From the IMG/VR virus record IMGVR_UViG_2660238548_000023: 10,865 bases of DNA. One strand, given 5' to 3'. How positions within the stretch are numbered: position 1 is the first letter of the stretch; every line of letters begins with the position of its first letter. The position numbers and the translations under genes are program-made. Shown here piece after piece: positions 1 to 5,964 of this stretch. The notes beneath the pieces are model-generated. The model was not told the origin of the DNA. It saw nothing but the letters and a program-made list of their open reading frames with translations, and ran no database searches. This DNA is from a virus (Duplodnaviria > Heunggongvirae > Uroviricota > Caudoviricetes).

Positions 1-39
1 ATGCGTATAGGACAAAATCGTTTTTTGGGGGCTATACAC

Positions 40-1254
40 ATGTTGCTTTCAGACCTTGCTATCCGTCGCGCGAAGCCAAAAGAGAAAGCCTATACACTCA
101 ATGACGGCAACGGGCTTTCGTTACTCATTGAGCCGAACGGTTCGAAGGGCTGGCGATTGCGATACAGGTTTGCAGGCAAGCCCAAAATGTTGTCGCTGGG
201 TGTTTATCCTGAGGTGTCCCTTTCTGATGCCAGGACGGCAAGGGATGAAGCCAAAAGGCTTATCGCTGGTGGAGTTAATCCGAGTGAGGTCAGAAAGGCC
301 CAAAAGCGAGAACAGGCGAACAAATGCGGTAACACCTTTGAGGCGATCGCCCGTGAGTGGTATGAAAAACGCCTGGACAGATGGTCACAATCATATGCCG
401 CAGAGATGATTGATACGTTTGAGAAGGACGTATTCCCGTATATCGGCAGCAAACCGATAGCAGAAATAAAACCGATGGAATTGCTCGCGGTTCTCTCTCG
501 TCTTAATGACCGTGGCGCAACTGAAAAATTGCGTAAGGTTCGACAGCGATGTGGCGAAGTGTTCCGGTACGCAATAATTACCGGACGCGCTGAATATAAC
601 CCCGCTCCTGATCTGGCAAGCGCATTTGCACCACACAAGAAAGAGCATTACGCGTATCTGAAAGTTGATGAGCTACCGGAGTTTTTCCGCGTTTTTAATA
701 CGTACACCGGAAGCCAGATCGTCAAGCTGGGTATGCGATTGTTGATTCTTACAGGACTCCGCCCAGGTGAATTACGGCAGGCAGAGTGGCAGGAGATTGA
801 TTTTGATAATCGTCTGTGGGAAGTGCCGAAAGAACGAATGAAAATGCGCCGTCCTCATTGCGTGCCACTTTCAGAACAGGCGATCGCTATTCTGGAACAG
901 TTAAAACACATGACGGGGCAGTATCCGTTTATTTTCCCTGGTCGAATACAGCACAGTAAGCCGATGAGTGAAATGGCTATGAACGTGCTTATTCGTCGTA
1001 TTGGCTATGCAGGGCGCGTTACTGGTCATGGGTTCCGGCATACCATGAGTACGATTTTGCATGAGCAGGGTTATAACTCCGCGTGGATAGAAACGCAGCT
1101 GGCGCACGTCGATAAAAACTCGATCCGTGGCACATACAATCACGCGCAATACCTGGACGGACGGCAGGAGATGCTCCAGTGGTACGCCGACTATATGGAC
1201 TCACTGGAACAGGGCGGGAATGTGGTACATGGCAAGTTTGGAAAATGTGGATGA
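40..1254 (+). CDS. int: P4/CP4-type tyrosine integrase (site-specific recombinase)
   Basis: ORF open from 1 to 1254. From the internal Met at 40 the N-terminus (MLLSDLAIRRAKPKEKAYTLNDGNGLSLLIEPNGSKGWRLRYRF) matches the P4-like integrase N-terminal pattern, and the C-terminal half has the catalytic-region pattern HGFRHT...LAHVD...Y. A G-run at 26-30 could serve as RBS. The start could instead be the ATG at 1. Confidence 0.88.
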   Translation: MLLSDLAIRRAKPKEKAYTLNDGNGLSLLIEPNGSKGWRLRYRFAGKPKMLSLGVYPEVSLSDARTARDEAKRLIAGGVNPSEVRKAQKREQANKCGNTFEAIAREWYEKRLDRWSQSYAAEMIDTFEKDVFPYIGSKPIAEIKPMELLAVLSRLNDRGATEKLRKVRQRCGEVFRYAIITGRAEYNPAPDLASAFAPHKKEHYAYLKVDELPEFFRVFNTYTGSQIVKLGMRLLILTGLRPGELRQAEWQEIDFDNRLWEVPKERMKMRRPHCVPLSEQAIAILEQLKHMTGQYPFIFPGRIQHSKPMSEMAMNVLIRRIGYAGRVTGHGFRHTMSTILHEQGYNSAWIETQLAHVDKNSIRGTYNHAQYLDGRQEMLQWYADYMDSLEQGGNVVHGKFGKCG

Positions 1255-1352
1255 CTGGTTGAGTATACAGTAGTAGACTTTGAGCGACTAAAAAGGCTGA
1301 TGCAAACCGAACTGGATCGGCCTTAACATTAGACCGCTTGAAGGGGGAGAAT

Positions 1353-2568: not shown

Positions 2569-3288
2569 ATGAAACGTCCGAATATGCCCGTACAGGGGCA
2601 GGGCTTCATTCAGCCTGAAATCAGCCAGAACGATATATTGATTCGCCACAAAGCAGAGTCGCGTATTGATTCCCGCGTTATTTCTGAGCGAGCAGGAATA
2701 CAACACGAAAGTATCATTGCGACGATTAAATCTCATCAATCCAGATTGCGCGAGCTTGGCTCACTGCCTCGCCAGTCAGTCAAGGAATTAACCTATTTGA
2801 AATCGGGAAAATCTGGCCGCAAGCGCGGTCGTCCTGAAATTAGTTATTTGCTGAATGAGCTACAGCTTGACTATCTGTTACGCGTTATCCGTGGGCGTGA
2901 CGCAGAACGTATCAACCAGTTCAAGCTGGATGTTACGAAGGCATTCGCGAAGCATCGCGCCGCTGAACCAGTCCGTCGCGAATATCTGCCAGGCTATCAC
3001 GAAAGCCGTGACGGGCTTAAAGCACTGGGCGCAGAACGTCACCATTACATCAACCTTGCCCGCACTGAAAATCGCTTCGCTGGGCTGGCTGTAGGCGAGC
3101 GTCAGAGCGCGGGAGAGCAACAGTTAGGCTTACTGATAGTCATGCAGAAAATCGAGCAGGCAGCATTTAACGAGGCGATACAGAACGGCATGACACCGAC
3201 CGAAGCGGTGCGGGAAGTTGCTCGCCGCATGGAGACGTTCGCCAGCCTGATGACGTCAGCGCCGTCTCTGGGGGTGAATCATGCGTAA
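2569..3288 (+). CDS. Rha-family phage regulatory protein (putative)
   Basis: 239-aa ORF; RBS aggag at 2558-2562, 6 nt before ATG 2569. The N-terminal region (ILIRHKAESRIDSRVISERAGIQHESIIATIKSH) resembles the Rha domain. Its stop overlaps the next start (ATG 3281, TAA 3286-3288). Confidence 0.6.
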   Translation: MKRPNMPVQGQGFIQPEISQNDILIRHKAESRIDSRVISERAGIQHESIIATIKSHQSRLRELGSLPRQSVKELTYLKSGKSGRKRGRPEISYLLNELQLDYLLRVIRGRDAERINQFKLDVTKAFAKHRAAEPVRREYLPGYHESRDGLKALGAERHHYINLARTENRFAGLAVGERQSAGEQQLGLLIVMQKIEQAAFNEAIQNGMTPTEAVREVARRMETFASLMTSAPSLGVNHA

Positions 3289-4804
3289 TTATGATTTCGC
3301 CGCAATTATTCCGGTATCACCTGGCATTATTGGCAGATATGAAACGGGCGTTGTCAGCGCACGCGCACTGCATAAAGCGCTCGGTGTAGGCCGTGATTTC
3401 ACCACCTGGATTAAAGGGCGTATTGAGGAATACGGATTTAAAAAAGGTGTGGATTTTGAGGCTGTAGAAAATTTGTACTTTGATTCCCAGAAACGGGGGA
3501 GCCAAAGTGTAAATATTGAACAGTTTGATTCTGGCTGGCACGTCGCCTGGGAGAACGTGAACATGCCTGACATCCGCAACGCTGCCGCCCTGTACATCGA
3601 TACTGCGGATAAGTTCGCACAGGTGAGCATCAACCATGCTGATTACATGCGCCATATCGTGAGCCATTTCGCCGCTGAGCGCATGAAACACGTTAAGCAT
3701 TATCAGAAGGAGGCTTTATCAAATTATCGCGCTGGTGGCCCTGTACGGCGTGAATATCCGCATGATGCAGGAATGGCAGGCAAAACAAAGGCGACCACGA
3801 AAGGGTCGCCAGTGGAGATAAAGGAAATCAAGCGCATCACCAACTATGCCATGAGTGTAGCTGGTGGACAAGGCTATCAGCCAGGCGGTCGGTTTTTAGT
3901 GGCTTTTAACCGCCGTGGGTATTTCTCGACAAAAGCCTCAAGGGCAAATCGTGTTGGCCTGGTGAGTGGCAGTGGATTAAGTAACAACCTCCTTTGCCGT
4001 TGTGCTTTTTCGCGCTGTCGCTCAAGTATGGATAATGCGATTTCCTGTAGTTCTTCATTTGTCATTGTCTGTACCCGTAAAGCGGTGCGCTGTAGTACCT
4101 CATATCACAGCGCAGGTATTTTTTATGGTTGTAATTTGCGTGATGATTCAGGTTGCTTTGCGACACACTGCATAAACATAAATAACGTGATGTTATTATG
4201 TGCTTTCAAAGAAAACGCAGGTATTTTTCGCACAAACTTTTCTCGCAACACATCCGACCACTTAAGCAAAAAAGCGGCATATACTGAAGCTATCCCTTAT
4301 AAAACGGGGATCGGGCGTAGGAACCCGTTTAACTGTAAGGCGATAAATGACGCCAGAAGCGTCTTTTTTTCTGCCAGCGCTTTACGCCATATCAATGGCG
4401 TTGTGTATTGTGCGTACTCGTGCACCATCCAGTCATTTCACGAGTTGCATTTTGCACAGCGCCACCAGCAAACAATGGTGATGCTGGCGGGGCTACCGAA
4501 AGGTAGGCCGGAGTCCTTACAGTCCGGTATTCCTACCCCCGCCAGTGTCACCGCCCATTGTGAGCGTAGGAACTCCTGCGGTGACGTTATTCATCACTGT
4601 AAGGAGGCTGCCAACATGGCTACTACCCCTACCCTCGTACATTCTCAGACTGCCTTTATCTGGCGCTTTATCATCTTTGGCGCGTCAGAATCCCAAATCA
4701 TCCACGTAACCGCCTGGACGGAACGCGAAGCGCGTAACCGTTGCCCGTCAGGTTGCGTTGCTGTATTCGCCGCCCGTATCCGTCAGGAGGCATCACATGG
4801 ATAA
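3281..4804 (+). CDS. AntA-domain antirepressor-like protein; 3' extent uncertain
   Basis: N-terminus (VVSARALHKALGVGRDFTTWIKGRIEEYGFKKGVDF) matches the AntA antirepressor N-domain pattern. The frame has no stop until 4804, but after about codon 230 (near 3960) the translation is Cys/Ser-rich and non-protein-like, and it runs through a hairpin plus T7 terminator (4349-4370), the structured leader and the in-frame Icd-like ORF. The true C-terminus is probably well upstream of 4804. Confidence 0.4.
   Translation: MRNYDFAAIIPVSPGIIGRYETGVVSARALHKALGVGRDFTTWIKGRIEEYGFKKGVDFEAVENLYFDSQKRGSQSVNIEQFDSGWHVAWENVNMPDIRNAAALYIDTADKFAQVSINHADYMRHIVSHFAAERMKHVKHYQKEALSNYRAGGPVRREYPHDAGMAGKTKATTKGSPVEIKEIKRITNYAMSVAGGQGYQPGGRFLVAFNRRGYFSTKASRANRVGLVSGSGLSNNLLCRCAFSRCRSSMDNAISCSSSFVIVCTRKAVRCSTSYHSAGIFYGCNLRDDSGCFATHCININNVMLLCAFKENAGIFRTNFSRNTSDHLSKKAAYTEAIPYKTGIGRRNPFNCKAINDARSVFFSASALRHINGVVYCAYSCTIQSFHELHFAQRHQQTMVMLAGLPKGRPESLQSGIPTPASVTAHCERRNSCGDVIHHCKEAANMATTPTLVHSQTAFIWRFIIFGASESQIIHVTAWTEREARNRCPSGCVAVFAARIRQEASHG
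4349..4370 (+). terminator. intrinsic terminator-like hairpin plus T7
   Basis: gacgc (4349-4353), loop cagaa, gcgtc (4359-4363), then ttttttt (4364-4370). It lies about 10 nt after the upstream copy of actgtaagg (4332-4340). Confidence 0.4.
4501..4592 (+). ncRNA. candidate c4/CI-type antisense immunity RNA (structured leader upstream of icd-like ORF)
   Basis: Hairpin 1: ggtagg (4502-4507) pairs with cctacc (4532-4537), inner stem ccgg/ccgg (4508-4511 / 4524-4527), 12-nt loop agtccttacagt. Loop bases 4514-4523 (tccttacagt) are exactly complementary to 4596-4605 (actgtaagga), which overlaps the SD of the Icd-like ORF; 9 of them also match 4332-4340. Hairpin 2: gtcaccgc (4547-4554) pairs with gcggtgac (4578-4585). 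Confidence 0.35.
4616..4804 (+). CDS. host cell division inhibitor Icd-like small protein (putative)
   Basis: 62-aa ORF (MATTPTLVHSQTAFIWRFIIFGASESQIIHVTAWTEREARNRCPSGCVAVFAARIRQEASHG). Strong SD aaggagg at 4601-4607, 8 nt before ATG 4616. Position directly after a c4-like structured leader matches the P1 c4-icd arrangement. It is in frame with the upstream long ORF. Confidence 0.4.
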   Translation: MATTPTLVHSQTAFIWRFIIFGASESQIIHVTAWTEREARNRCPSGCVAVFAARIRQEASHG

Positions 4805-5225
4805 AAACATGTTGATCGCCTCTTCTTTCGGGCTGTATGATGCCGAAGTCGCCCACATGGCGACCGGGTTTAGCAGCCTGAATCAGATAGCGGACAGCCG
4901 CTTACATTCCGATATGCGGTTTTTTTGTGTCCGTAAGCCTACCCATACCCGCATTATGGCGGGGCGTAACGGGGGAGCCTTTGCGCTCGCTGGTTCCTAT
5001 CTGGCCAGTCTGCTAACCCCGTTACGTCTCGCCACCATGTTTAGCAGCGTAGTAGCGAGACTCCTTAATCAACAGATAGGAGCCTTTCACATGGCTGTAT
5101 CCGCACGCACATCTGATTTTTGTCGCCCGTATCCGTCAGGAGGTGACTCATGCTTAAAACCTTCCGCGTCTTTTCCCGTGCTGTTAACAAGCGCGGCCAT
5201 ACCATCGGCATCACACAGAACGTGA
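4797..5225 (+). CDS. hypothetical ORF overlapping the second structured-leader copy
   Basis: ATG 4797 lies 6 nt after the first 20-bp RBS module cgcccgtatccgtcaggagg (4771-4790) and overlaps the icd-like stop (TAA 4802-4804). The translation is Ala/Ser/Leu-rich and low-complexity, and its 3' half covers a second divergent copy of the leader, so it may not encode a real protein. Confidence 0.3.
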   Translation: MDKNMLIASSFGLYDAEVAHMATGFSSLNQIADSRLHSDMRFFCVRKPTHTRIMAGRNGGAFALAGSYLASLLTPLRLATMFSSVVARLLNQQIGAFHMAVSARTSDFCRPYPSGGDSCLKPSASFPVLLTSAAIPSASHRT

Positions 5226-5335
5226 AGGCCGAAAACGTCCAGGCTGCAATCAGCACAGTAATTAACAAATCAGCTAAAGCCGGTTTATCCGGCGTAATTA
5301 TCCACGCAGTTACATGTATTCAGGATGAGGAGTAA
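5150..5335 (+). CDS. hypothetical small basic protein
   Basis: 61-aa ORF. ATG 5150 lies 6 nt after the second exact copy of the 20-bp RBS module (5124-5143). The sequence (MLKTFRVFSRAVNKRGHTIGITQNVKAENVQAAISTVINKSAKAGLSGVIIHAVTCIQDEE) is protein-like. Confidence 0.45.
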   Translation: MLKTFRVFSRAVNKRGHTIGITQNVKAENVQAAISTVINKSAKAGLSGVIIHAVTCIQDEE

Positions 5336-5338
5336 TTC

Positions 5339-5548
5339 ATGTGTGATTTTTCCGATATGACTGTTGATGAAGCAGCAAAAAGCGCAATGCAGGCAGAACT
5401 TATTTGTTCTCTGATGATGGGTAACACAGGTGGAATGACTGAGGGTGAGATTGAGTCATTGCTCGCCCTGATTAAGCAGCTTACAGGTAAGGCAGGTAGC
5501 TGGCTGATTGCTGCATCGGGTGATGATGCAATATGCGTCAATGACTGA
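5339..5548 (+). CDS. hypothetical small acidic protein
   Basis: 69-aa ORF. RBS gaggag at 5327-5332 before ATG 5339; begins 3 nt after the previous stop. Confidence 0.5.
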   Translation: MCDFSDMTVDEAAKSAMQAELICSLMMGNTGGMTEGEIESLLALIKQLTGKAGSWLIAASGDDAICVND

Positions 5549-5592
5549 ATCCTTTGTTGTTCTGAATATCATGAAATTAAGGGGGTGCAGTA

Positions 5593-5784
5593 ATGCAGCA
5601 AATAACACTGGCAGAAGCCTCACTGCAAGCGCAACAGGTCGAAGTAATCAGCCGCATGATTGAACGCAACCACGAAGAAATAGACGACCATGACCTTTCT
5701 GTTATTGCAGGACTTATCAAACAACTTTCCAGCAATGTGGCGGTGTGGTTAATGACGGAGGAAGAAAAACGCGGCGAACAATAA
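5593..5784 (+). CDS. hypothetical small acidic protein (possible paralog of 5339-5548)
   Basis: 63-aa ORF. RBS aagggggtg upstream of ATG 5593. Shares an LIKQL...WL segment with the preceding small protein. Confidence 0.5.
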   Translation: MQQITLAEASLQAQQVEVISRMIERNHEEIDDHDLSVIAGLIKQLSSNVAVWLMTEEEKRGEQ

Positions 5785-5841: not shown

Positions 5842-5964
5842 ATGGCATCAAAAAATACTGGCTTAACTGCCAGTAGCAAAACTCACCCCGAATTTATGTG
5901 CGGGGATATTTACCGCAATGAATACGGTAGCCACATGACGATGATCAGCAGAGGTAAGAAATGA
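5842..5964 (+). CDS. putative 40-aa micro-ORF translationally coupled to the primase
   Basis: Manually found ATG 5842 with RBS caggag at 5826-5831; the TGA stop (5962-5964) overlaps the primase ATG (5961) as ATGA. Below the ORF-track length cutoff. Confidence 0.25.
   Translation: MASKNTGLTASSKTHPEFMCGDIYRNEYGSHMTMISRGKK

Follow-up and report, generated by a model that had tools for sequence, protein, structure and literature searches.

The window analysed here, 10,865 nucleotides of virus DNA (IMG/VR record IMGVR_UViG_2660238548_000023), contains two exact copies of a 20-nucleotide sequence, CGCCCGTATCCGTCAGGAGG, at 4771-4790 and 5124-5143, each followed 6 nt downstream by an ATG (4797 and 5150). 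A preliminary description of this DNA took the 20-mer to be a duplicated ribosome-binding module, and also a repeated antisense target through which one regulator might act on several genes. The question is what this sequence does, and why it is present twice.

The answer proposed here, in which we have high confidence, is that the 20-mer is the 3′ end of an icd gene used for two purposes, namely to encode the last residues of the protein (ARIRQE) and to provide the Shine-Dalgarno (SD) sequence of the next cistron. The duplication follows from the presence, one after the other, of two cassettes for antisense-RNA immunity in the leader of the island's early (replication) operon. The feature is ordinary in kind, being a conserved gene 3′ end that doubles as the ribosome-binding site (RBS) of a coupled cistron, and the region belongs to a known kind of system, arranged here as a heterotypic tandem.

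Extent and coding content of the repeat

A sequence search confirmed the duplication and the position of both ATG codons, and found the 20-mer at no other site in the window even when up to three mismatches were allowed. Chance was ruled out as the origin of the pair by a shuffle test, in which two matches occurred in 0 of 200 shuffles. The repeat extends around the 20-mer to 41 nt at 80% identity, with the copies 353 nt apart. The proposed ribosome-binding site is also borne out, AGGAGG being an SD sequence. A partial third copy, GCCCGTCAGG, is indeed present at 4743-4752 but is not a conserved copy, because the match depends on a TCA serine codon that is in the minority (11 of the 44 relatives with serine at this position, most of which use TCC). 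On this codon usage it was rejected as a functional element.

The 20-mer encodes ARIRQE as the last six codons of icd. We found 210 Icd-like homologues, and in nearly all of the 120 examined the tail carries ARIRQE or ARIRQG. At the nucleotide level, GCC CGT ATY CGY CAG GRG is almost invariant across 77 unique junctions; an ATG is found at the junction offset in 74 of them, with the stop 3 nt after. The preliminary description had considered that the codons of a conserved protein, encoded by ORF 4797-5225, might explain the conservation. Codons of a conserved protein do explain it, but the protein is Icd, encoded at 4616-4804. Synonymous-site entropy is lower in the ARIRQ codons (mean 0.34 bits) than at other invariant residues (0.80 bits), a modest reduction in means averaged from per-column values of phylogenetically related sequences, and this fits an added RBS constraint on these codons.

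Related loci were gathered by a metagenome scan in place of a one-per-species genome collection, in which a scan with the Icd alignment returned one locus, the patterns being too narrow; an exact 19-mer scan of viral contigs also returned one locus. Among 15 loci that have icd genes in tandem, five have identical 20-mers, and the differences range over 0-3 nt. The exact identity of both copies is allele-specific, whereas conservation lies in the consensus CGCCCGTATYCGYCAGGRGN followed by 6-7 nt and ATG.

Two antisense-RNA cassettes in series

The features of the region are listed in Table 1. The structured leader noted in the preliminary description is present twice, 4940-5120 being the second copy of a structured RNA, and the suggestion that this is an immunity region of the antisense-RNA type holds well: there are two C4 RNAs above the gathering score of Rfam RF01695, both matching over the full length of the model (positions 1-87). 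Among 32 distinct copies of C4 the outer stem is 99.4% paired, with compensatory changes in 11 of 17 pairs, and this level of covariation was reached in 0 of 500 shuffles. The third helix is visible in the Rfam alignment, but its column assignment here is off register and uninformative for covariation.

Table 1. Features of the tandem cassettes and their surroundings, in window coordinates
Feature	Position	Strand	Basis and details
Target/decoy RNA 1 (isrK / P4 seqA-like)	4292-4369	+	Rfam isrK; a1 GCGTAGGAAC 4315-4324 in hairpin loop; b1 ACTGTAAGG 4332-4340; intrinsic terminator, stem 4349-4363 plus T-run
C4/CI-type antisense RNA 1 (P4-like)	4471-4558	+	Rfam RF01695, 70.3 bits (gathering score 45); b′ AGTCCTTACAGT 4512-4523; a′ ATTCCTAC 4529-4536
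Downstream targets of C4 RNA 1	4564-4607	+	a2 GCGTAGGAAC 4564-4573; segment 4571-4586; b2 ACTGTAAGGAGG 4596-4607 = SD of icd-1
icd-1, predicted 62-aa Icd-like cell-division inhibitor	4616-4804	+	NCBIfam NF033153
Probable coupling junction 1	4771-4804	+	20-mer 4771-4790; SD AGGAGG 4785-4790; ATG 4797; icd-1 stop TAA 4802-4804 (ATGGATAA)
Bridge reading frame	4797-5225	+	ATG predicted to be coupled; stop-free across cassette 2
Promoter-like site TTGATC-18-TATGAT	4812-4841	+	directly upstream of target RNA 2
Target/decoy RNA 2 (P1/P7 a1b1-like)	4848-4926	+	alignment with P7 immI; a1 core TTTAGCAG 4869-4876; b1 CAGATAG 4884-4890; T-run 4920-4926
C4 antisense RNA 2 (P1/P7-like)	4952-5039	+	Rfam RF01695, 72.9 bits (gathering score 45); b′ TTCCTATCTGG 4994-5004; a′ CTGCTAA 5010-5016
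Downstream targets of C4 RNA 2	5040-5093	+	a2 TTTAGCAG 5040-5047; GCGAGAC 5055-5061; b2 CAGATAGGAG 5073-5082 = SD; ATG 5091
icd-2 remnant, 44-codon ORF	5091-5225	+	alignment with L001 (intact 56-aa icd-2)
Probable coupling junction 2	5124-5157	+	20-mer 5124-5143; ATG 5150; former icd-2 stop TAA 5155-5157 (ATGCTTAA)
61-aa ORF, cistron served by junction 2	5150-5335	+	phrog_3672, E = 2.9e-24

Both cassettes have the same layout, which is read as a decoy/target RNA (a1, b1) with a terminator, a C4/CI RNA (a′, b′), the a2 and b2 targets, icd, and a probable coupling junction. In cassette 1, the decoy RNA scores 50.0 bits against isrK, exactly the gathering score of 50, and there is a weak c4-a1b1 match at 4279-4331. 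It is complementary to C4 RNA 1 in an inverted-repeat search, and in sister islands its a1 and b1 loops change in step with their own C4. The a2 target is identical to a1, 4514-4523 in b′ is a perfect 10-nt complement of 4596-4605 in b2, and a predicted local hairpin at 4573-4607 would sequester the icd-1 SD. The icd-1 product belongs to the Icd-like family NF033153, with 59.8 bits (cut-off 25); for comparison P7 Icd scores 52.7 bits and the intact icd-2 product of L001 51.2 bits.

In cassette 2, the decoy RNA is below the gathering score for both models (isrK, 35.4 against 50 bits; c4-a1b1, 29.7 against 46.7), and was assigned by its alignment with the a1b1 region of P7 immI, in which a1 is identical, and by its complementarity to C4 RNA 2 in the inverted-repeat search. 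The same search pairs 4992-5003 with 5073-5084 (b′ and b2), and the fold predicted for 5020-5100 has z = -3.0. The promoter-like site is the sole consensus match in 3900-5700, and is weak evidence when taken alone because 2.3 matches are expected there by chance.

A 104-bp deletion, flanked by 8-bp direct repeats (CCGCACGC; kept copy at 5101-5108), has destroyed the second icd. The core of Icd is gone and the frame is shifted, and a scan of ORFs 4797-5225 and 5091-5225 with NF033153 gave no match. With icd-2 lost, the second 20-mer copy now acts only as an RBS. The relationship to P1, P7 and P4 was found by a DNA search in distant mode; tblastn of the Icd-2 protein, a very short query, against phages found nothing at E ≤ 1e-3.

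The direct repeats flanking a 353-bp unit could also be taken to indicate that one cassette was recently duplicated in tandem, or that the assembly is at fault, with the 20-mers as end-points. This is highly improbable. The two C4 RNAs are strongly diverged (25 of 88 columns invariant in a three-sequence alignment), and the closest phage relatives differ, being P4 for one cassette and P1/P7 for the other. Moreover, at least 63 E. coli genomes that were completed independently have the tandem arrangement, as do many metagenome contigs. The phage relationships and these genomes together refute both duplication and artefact.

Specificity of the predicted loop-target pairing

Both RNAs have the defining arrangement of C4, in which a′ and b′ are complementary to a1 and b1 upstream and to a2 and b2 downstream, with b2 lying over the RBS of the next ORF. 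Duplex energies were computed on the loops alone, since including stem nucleotides was too noisy. They are -14.6 kcal/mol for b′ with b2 in cassette 1 and -17.1 kcal/mol in cassette 2, compared to -4.0 and -5.1 kcal/mol for the cross-cassette pairs. Across 34 related modules cognate b′-b2 pairs average -15.6 and non-cognate pairs -8.4. The sequences therefore indicate that the two C4 loops are each matched to the targets of their own cassette, namely the icd RBS and the upstream decoy, and that these pairs covary over the 34 modules.

The preliminary description had proposed that the 20-mer is itself the antisense target, with one regulator, either a C4 RNA or the segment aactcctgcgg, controlling several genes. 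The segment lies at 4571-4581 (not 4572-4582) and is close to complementary to the 20-mer, as proposed: the two can form 9 bp with one bulge (-15.5 kcal/mol; -20.2 for a longer segment), and the anti-SD UCCU of the C4 loops can touch any SD. However, either C4 loop pairs with either 20-mer at just -5.1 to -7.0 kcal/mol, which is essentially the anti-SD contact and far from the energies on their own b2 sites. Nor is there cognate preference in the 27 modules with a junction, where b′ pairs with its own junction at -7.0 and with others at -6.9, and the post-a2 segments at -13.6 and -13.8 kcal/mol, respectively. In the window, 77 other 11-mers pair with the 20-mer as well as the segment does, and the equivalent segment of cassette 2 reaches only -9.0 and -8.7 kcal/mol.

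The segment also has better-supported partners nearby, since it folds locally with the icd-1 SD and with the 3′ strand of C4. The latter pairing covaries across four sequence classes and is also seen in P4; an energy test of this helix discriminates weakly (cognate -16.0 against -12.0 ± 3.7 kcal/mol), and in a MAFFT alignment of the C4 3′ end and downstream sequence the candidate helix does not fall in common columns. We conclude that there are two regulators and no specificity for the 20-mer. The single-regulator model is largely refuted by the comparative data, and we regard it as very unlikely.

What the sequences show is the anatomy of the region, the families to which its parts belong, the covariation and the conserved junction; the function proposed for the cassettes is based on analogy with P1 immI and P4 immunity. 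Each C4 RNA, presumably processed by RNase P to about 77 nt, would pair with its own b2 and a2 and so block translation of icd. An untranslated icd would then allow premature Rho-dependent termination, so that neither the small ORFs further along nor the primase-helicase would be expressed. If icd is translated, the terminating ribosome would open the junction hairpin and re-initiate at the overlapping ATG, passing to the frame across cassette 2 after icd-1, and to the 61-aa ORF after icd-2.

The probable coupling junctions

The next cistron's ATG overlaps the icd stop (ATGNNTAA), in what would be a translational-coupling junction, and the features expected of one are all present: an SD inside the upstream ORF, overlapping start and stop, and conservation in relatives. 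At junction 1 the overlap is 8 nt, and a predicted hairpin at 4785-4824 takes in the SD and ATG 4797, which agrees with a coupled start, although it is only suggestive. At junction 2 the predicted hairpin is weak (z = -0.2), so that use of the start at 5150 may not depend on coupling. The remnant ORF, being frameshifted in this window, reads through ATG 5150, and the ancestral coupling geometry thus no longer applies there. The arrangement is bracketed by those of relatives. L001 has two intact cassettes, and L002 has a different first icd with the same junction. L003, L086 and L087 have one cassette, whose single icd passes through the same junction straight into the 61-aa ORF; every relative has the product of this ORF annotated as a conserved hypothetical protein.

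A further explanation for the identity of the two copies is that it comes mainly from a recombination joint, in which the icd 3′ end serves as the right homology arm for swapping or stacking cassettes, and the copies match exactly as a product of recent exchange or gene conversion, not of function. Several observations point this way. Sister islands with flanks about 99% identical carry a different cassette, with homology lost at 4370 and regained at 5101, within the 3′ end of icd; mosaicism is visible in the Icd proteins; and the icd of cassette 2 has an island-type 3′ end, not a P7-type one. Both window copies also carry a minority allele (ATC, CGT, GAG), found in 10 of the 77 unique junctions. 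Recombination leaves unexplained the invariant ARIRQ, the conserved ATG/stop overlap and the corresponding geometry in P4 and P7, and since tandem copies elsewhere differ by 1-3 nt, homogenization is not general. As the main source of the identity it is possible but doubtful, and it is compatible with the dual-use gene end, not an alternative to it.

A reading frame across the second cassette

The bridge frame that starts at junction 1 contains no stop for 294 nt, over which it passes through decoy RNA 2, the terminator of that RNA and the precursor of C4 RNA 2. ATG 5091 is in the same frame, so that in intact relatives the bridge frame enters icd-2; in the window it ends at 5225 owing to the frameshift caused by the deletion. 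Of 19 unique modules of the cassette 2 type, an ATG at -294 is present in 17, and in 17 the frame contains no stop. The homologous region of P1, P7, D6 and Ro157 has 1-8 stops in every frame. This phage contrast is the cleaner test, since a count of stop triplets within the C4 loops is to some extent circular, the absence of stops being what defines the open frame. The alignment of the frame has no excess of third-position changes, so the peptide sequence is not conserved, and ORF 4797-5225 had no match in Pfam or NCBIfam.

A tentative interpretation, which we consider possible but hardly the likeliest outcome, is that junction 1 is the entry to a relay in which translation links two stacked RNA locks, making the P4-type and P1/P7-type immunities hierarchical. 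Ribosomes leaving icd-1 would translate through cassette 2, suppressing its terminator and Rho entry, and would enter icd-2 with no need for the b2 RBS blocked by C4 RNA 2. The sequences suggest that translation through an antisense-RNA precursor may belong to the regulation. If true, the same logic would explain the P4 'cI/ash ORF' and Pfam Phage_ASH as open frames over an RNA gene. Kept in islands and absent from phage homologues, the stop-free frame over the second RNA is a testable lead.

Comparison with known systems

Cassette 1 resembles the immunity region of P4 (seqA - CI RNA/seqB - seqC - kil/eta - epsilon - alpha primase), with about 70% identity to the cI region over 4473-4634. The two share the RBS context GGAGGCTGCCAnCATGGCTAC, the logic of loops and targets, and the post-a2 segment GAACTCCnGCG. 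The kil/eta ('cI ORF')-epsilon junction of P4 has the same geometry as junction 1 (GGAGG, 6 nt, GTG, 8-nt overlap), and in both a primase-helicase follows downstream. The island therefore resembles the P4 satellite in that an RNA for CI-type immunity precedes a primase-helicase of the alpha-like kind. They differ in that the P4 ORF ends in AARLPVVEVSRA, whereas the small ORF here is clearly an Icd-family protein ending in ARIRQE; in that P4 has epsilon after the junction, where the island has the 61-aa ORF or the bridge frame and no annotated epsilon; and in that a second cassette of another type follows here. Among the window ORFs scanned, no sid, delta, psu or epsilon was noticed.

Cassette 2 resembles P1/P7 immI (a1 b1 - c4 - a2 b2 - icd - ant1/ant2), with about 80% identity over a1b1 and c4. 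The a1, a′ and a2 sequences are identical to those of P7, while b1, b′ and b2 are unlike them, and the specificity of cassette 2 therefore differs. In both systems b2 overlaps the icd RBS, and overlapping stop and start codons join icd to the next gene; in P7 icd overlaps ant1 by ATGA behind CAGGGGGG, a related 4-nt overlap. Unlike P1/P7, cassette 2 has no annotated C1 operator and no ant gene after icd, where small ORFs and a D5-type primase are found instead. P7 Icd has a C-terminal extension of about 25 aa that is missing from the island Icd. The P1-type phage cassettes stand first in their operon, whereas cassette 2 stands downstream of another icd and is crossed by one stop-free frame.

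The Gifsy-1 isrK - orf45 - anrP region of Salmonella likewise has an isrK-type RNA with a leaky terminator, and there a processed C4-like RNA (STnc1160) lies inside a small ORF for which both translation and coupling to the following gene were shown by experiment (PMC4825925). On the side of the island, the likeness includes a predicted local structure that sequesters the RBS, probable coupling by overlapping stop and start codons, and a conserved nucleotide sequence without a conserved peptide. Gifsy-1 differs in having a single cassette, in being followed downstream by a gene for an antirepressor-like regulator, and in its short IsrK RNA, for which activation of translation in trans was demonstrated (PMC4825925). 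The mechanism of C4 is summarized in PMC5320573, and Rfam matches to C4 and isrK in Gram-negative PICIs and P4-like satellites have been reported in passing (PMC10111431). Neither the tandem heterotypic arrangement nor the junction, nor how diverse the specificities are, was described in the literature that could be searched, and searches for the Icd-like or ash family protein gave unrelated papers only.

The island and wider implications

Satellite islands of E. coli commonly stack P4-type and P1/P7-type RNA immunity cassettes, each with its own specificity. This bears on cross-immunity among satellites, P4-like elements and P1-like plasmid prophages, and the many co-varying combinations of loop and target in related modules form a natural library of orthogonal antisense switches. 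There are also consequences for annotation, as Pfam 'Ash', the PGAP 'ash family protein' and the over-long 'Icd-like protein' are largely the isrK/C4 RNA region translated. Historically these annotations go back to the P4 'cI gene product' ORF.

The island carries integrase, Rha/AntA ('Bro zone') genes, primase, SSB and PerC-type regulators, and adjoins a tRNA-Gly gene in a sister strain. The product of 5961-7784 has D5_N, DUF5906 and Pox_D5 domains, and a fragment with an AntA domain lies upstream of the cassettes, at 3281 to about 3540.

Two copies of one junction

The 20-mer CGCCCGTATCCGTCAGGAGG occurs at 4771-4790 and again at 5124-5143, and an ATG lies 6 nt past each copy (4797 and 5150), exactly as the preliminary description had it. 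No other site in the window matches it with three or fewer mismatches, and two matches were obtained in none of 200 shuffles of the window. A repeat search of the window places the copies 353 nt apart and gives a repeat length, with flanks, of 41 nt at 80% identity. The third partial copy proposed at 4743-4752 is present, but it requires a TCA serine codon, and of the 44 relatives having serine there only 11 use it. It is concluded that the feature is a conserved icd end with a coupled-RBS junction, and that the stacking of two heterotypic C4/CI immunity cassettes accounts for its being present twice.

Anatomy of the two cassettes

A second, divergent copy of the structured leader had been suspected, and Rfam indeed gives two full-length C4 antisense RNAs. 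The anatomy of the cassettes, set out in the table below, comes from a comparison of the Rfam structure with the repeats, inverted and direct, found in the window. The leader region contains two complete cassettes, the first P4-like and the second P1/P7-like. Such stacking of heterotypic cassettes is a variation on a well-known type of system.

Features of the two immunity cassettes and of the surrounding island (window coordinates, except for P4)
Feature	Position	Sequence	Remark
isrK / c4-a1b1-type element before C4#1	4292-4369		Rfam 50.0 bits, exactly at threshold
a1, cassette 1	4315-4324	GCGTAGGAAC	hairpin loop
b1, cassette 1	4332-4340	ACTGTAAGG	
Terminator, cassette 1	4349-4363		stem, plus T-run
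C4 antisense RNA #1	4471-4558		Rfam 70.3 bits, gathering score 45
b' loop, C4#1	4512-4523	AGTCCTTACAGT	
a', C4#1	4529-4536	ATTCCTAC	
a2, cassette 1	4564-4573	GCGTAGGAAC	same as a1
b2 (SD), cassette 1	4596-4607	ACTGTAAGGAGG	
icd#1	4616-4804		62 aa; NF033153 59.8 bits, cut-off 25
isrK / c4-a1b1-type element before C4#2	4848-4926		Rfam 35.4 bits, under threshold
a1, cassette 2	4869-4876	TTTAGCAG	
b1, cassette 2	4884-4890	CAGATAG	
Terminator, cassette 2	4920-4926		T-run
C4 antisense RNA #2	4952-5039		Rfam 72.9 bits, gathering score 45
b' loop, C4#2	4994-5004	TTCCTATCTGG	
a', C4#2	5010-5016	CTGCTAA	
a2, cassette 2	5040-5047	TTTAGCAG	same as a1
b2 (SD), cassette 2	5073-5082	CAGATAGGAG	
icd remnant ORF, cassette 2	ATG 5091		
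C4#1 outer-stem 3' strand / post-a2 segment	4544-4552 / 4577-4585		
C4#2 outer-stem 3' strand / post-a2 segment	5027-5033 / 5055-5061		
The same pair in P4 (L089)	~1268-1275 / ~1302-1309		
P4-type integrase	1-1254		
HTH regulator, Rha protein, AntA fragment			island genes
Small ORFs			between cassettes and primase-helicase
D5-type primase-helicase	5961-7784		
SSB, ProQ/FinO, PerC-family proteins			island genes

The sole sigma-70-like match in 3900-5700, TTGATC-18-TATGAT at 4812-4841, stops 7 nt short of the start of the second target RNA, inside the hairpin covering ATG 4797. Because of this placing, cassette 2 may be transcribed from a promoter of its own, as is isrK in Gifsy-1.

The icd 3' end

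In the icd#1 frame, copy 1 reads c GCC CGT ATC CGT CAG GAG g (A-R-I-R-Q-E), followed by A-S-H-G and the stop. ATG 4797 lies within the final icd#1 codons (cAT GGA TAA), an overlap of 8 nt. The SD and ATG of this junction are in a predicted hairpin (4785-4824, z = -1.9), which is what a coupled start should show. The structure predicted at junction 2 is weak.

Copy 2 is the equivalent junction of a second icd. This gene is intact in a related locus, L001 (2392-2562; 56 aa, MAVSARPYF...LIFVARIRQEVTHA and stop), by comparison with which 104 bp are missing from the window and from a second locus, L002. The missing stretch lies between two direct repeats of 8 bp, CCGCACGC, and the joint is at 5101-5108. 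The deletion removes the Icd core and shifts the frame to leave a 44-codon ORF (5091-5225), so that icd#2 is inactivated in both, while the C4#2 RNA, its targets and the downstream RBS survive. In three loci with one cassette (L003, L086 and L087), icd passes via the junction straight into a 61-aa ORF, whose start in the window is 5150. Two icd-type junctions were found in 15 loci, among them the window and the related E. coli loci fetched for comparison. Their spacing is 353 nt in loci with the icd#2 deletion and 456-458 nt in the others. Within a locus the two 20-mers differ by 0-3 nt, and exact identity is not general.

Out of 210 Icd-like homologues, the tails of 120 were examined, and nearly all end in ARIRQ[E/G] plus 3-5 residues, usually xxH[A/G/D/E]. 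The H-x pair is the trace of the embedded ATG. GCC CGT ATY CGY CAG GRG is nearly invariant over 77 unique junctions, drawn from 80 metagenome loci and from genomic loci, with the ATG at +25 in 74 of them and the stop at +30. In a codon-aware alignment of 71 unique icd genes, the synonymous-site entropy, averaged over per-column values, is 0.34 bits at the five ARIRQ codons, compared with 0.80 bits at eight other invariant residues. The added constraint on the 20-mer codons is modest. It is greatest at GCC-CGT and at CAG, the codon in which the SD starts.

The Icd-like proteins of the sampled loci (L006-L085) are put together as mosaics from a small set of segment types at the N terminus, in the centre and at the C terminus (VHSQTAF / SHNLNKF / VSARPYF and CPSGCVAVFAARIRQ / LPHAHLIFVARIRQ are examples), which indicates recombination within the ~170-bp icd gene. 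Many of these icd genes have no upstream C4.

Specificity of loops and targets

The 20-mer had been proposed as a repeated antisense target that places several downstream genes under one regulator. There are in fact two regulators, and their loops are cassette-specific. Within a cassette, the b'/b2 duplex has an energy of -14.6 (cassette 1) or -17.1 kcal/mol (cassette 2), against -4.0 and -5.1 kcal/mol for the cross-cassette duplexes; a'/a1 gives -15.4 and -14.4 kcal/mol respectively. Loops covary strongly with targets over 34 unique modules. For b'-b2, the cognate mean is -15.6 and the non-cognate -8.4 ± 2.4 kcal/mol, the cognate target being best or tied best in 29 of the 34; for a'-a2 the values are -9.2 and -4.9, with the cognate best or tied best in 30. 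Over the 27 junction-bearing modules, by contrast, neither b' (cognate -7.0, non-cognate -6.9) nor the segment following a2 (-13.6 and -13.8) has any specificity for its own junction, and the 20-mer does not behave as a repeated antisense target. The segment aactcctgcgg, which had been noted as near-complementary to the 20-mer, is present, though at 4571-4581. It can form a duplex with the 20-mer (-15.5 kcal/mol), but so can 77 other 11-mers in the window, and there is no cognate preference. The class of system was correctly recognized, but the 20-mer was given the wrong role.

The minimum-energy fold has 4573-4584 paired to 4593-4607, which sequesters the icd#1 SD. In addition, the outer stem of C4#1 has in its 3' strand a sequence complementary to GCGGTGAC (4578-4585). 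This complementarity recurs with other sequences in other module classes (CCACCGCC/GGCGGTGG, CCGCCAC/GTGGCGG, GTCTCGC/GCGAGAC) and in P4 (CTATCGCC/GGCGATAG), making four module classes and P4, as judged from comparison of the sequences. The pairing would make a hairpin with a2 in its loop, and could not coexist with the lowest part of the C4 stem. For 5020-5100, folding gives z = -3.0.

In two loci (L007 1206-1345 and L008 1816-1955) the C4 b' loop of the second cassette is mismatched to its own b2 (in L007, loop TTTCTTTGGTT and b2 AAACATAGGAG); these modules may have arisen by recombination, or may be de-repressed or under cross-regulation. GUUCCUA in the b' loop of C4#2 (4992-4998) is complementary over 7 nt to UAGGAAC in a1 and a2 of cassette 1 (4317-4324 and 4566-4573; -10.6 and -11.2 kcal/mol), which could be inter-cassette cross-talk or coincidence.

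Proposed mechanism and relation to P1/P7 and P4

Anatomy, homology and covariation were observed here directly. We infer processing, repression, Rho polarity and coupling from the P1/P7 and P4 systems, whose immunity mechanisms are established (summarized in PMC5320573; also PMC4825925). By analogy, the C4 RNA of each cassette would be cut out of the operon transcript, and its a' and b' would pair with a2 and b2, and also with the upstream decoy a1 and b1. Pairing would block translation of icd, upon which the untranslated transcript would end prematurely and the replication genes would be off. When icd is translated, the ribosome at its stop would re-initiate at the overlapping ATG via the SD in the 20-mer.

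In a DNA search in distant mode, 4860-5049 matches the c4 regions of P1, P7, D6 and their relatives at ~80% identity, and 4473-4634 matches the P4 cI region at ~70%. P7 has the same a1, a' and a2 as cassette 2, but different b1, b' and b2; P4 has its RBS context and post-a2 segment in common with cassette 1. The icd/ant1 overlap of P7 is ATGA, preceded by CAGGGGGG. The P4 'cI ORF', now recognized as holding the kil/eta frames as well as the CI RNA, ends ...GTGGAGGTGTCCCGTGCGTAA. The epsilon start is an embedded GTG, which GGAGG precedes by 6 nt; the overlap is 8 nt, and the geometry is that of the window. Since both phages have overlapping stop/start junctions, P4 with this geometry, the junction is an old feature common to this family of immunity regions.

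Island context and cassette exchange

The layout of the island is that of Gram-negative PICI and P4-like satellites, in which C4 and isrK matches have been mentioned in passing (PMC10111431). In a sister strain it adjoins a tRNA-Gly gene. Sister islands with both flanks ~99% identical hold another, single cassette (window 4371-5100 against L086 4368-4646, and L087). Homology is lost where the first terminator ends (4370) and returns at 5101 inside the icd 3' end; the a1/b1 loops within the otherwise conserved isrK are also swapped, matching the resident C4. Because homology resumes there, the icd 3' end is also the right-hand limit of cassette exchange. Of 5,426 complete E. coli genomes, 63 match over its full length the stretch from the icd 3' end through the second target RNA to C4#2, and the P1/P7-type cassette of these islands is always downstream of another icd. 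Among strains with the island, PS2Canimalfeces12 is identical to the window over 4760-5060, and STEC2018-553 has two intact icd genes.

Downstream of the immunity region, the small ORFs 5339-5548 (69 aa) and 5593-5784 (63 aa) both match phrog_1478, and their products are therefore tandem paralogues. Weak sub-threshold Rfam matches to plant and animal miRNA precursor models in the primase-ssb gap (7850-7980 and 8032-8103, both minus strand) point to a long hairpin or repeat-rich stretch, possibly the island replication origin.

Open frames across the RNAs

The frame opened by ATG 4797 is stop-free across the second target RNA and C4#2, and in frame with ATG 5091. It stays open for 381 nt, against 21 and 9 nt in the other two frames. 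In 40 of 44 distinct modules the icd frame is open across the entire C4; the remaining four are shifted by 1 nt, and in them a different frame is open for 480 nt. Among 19 unique P1/P7-type modules, 17 have an ATG at -294 and 17 have no in-frame stop, whereas the homologous 300 nt of P1, P7, D6 and Ro157 contain 1-8 stops in every frame. The variable sites of the bridging frame have no third-position excess, and so its peptide is not conserved, as was also reported for Gifsy-1 orf45 (PMC4825925). This suggests, rather than shows, that translation across the second RNA may matter.

Pfam Phage_ASH (PF10554) has a match in the translated RNA region (4280-4646). The match arises because frames are open over such RNAs and because the P4 'put. 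ash gene' / 'cI gene product' ORF, from which the family is derived, spans the CI RNA. A stop-free frame of 507 codons (3281-4804, plus strand) links an N-terminal AntA fragment to icd#1 across the RNA region of isrK#1/C4#1, and PGAP calls over the isrK/C4 region in relatives include 'ash family protein' pseudogenes and a 380-aa 'Icd-like protein'.
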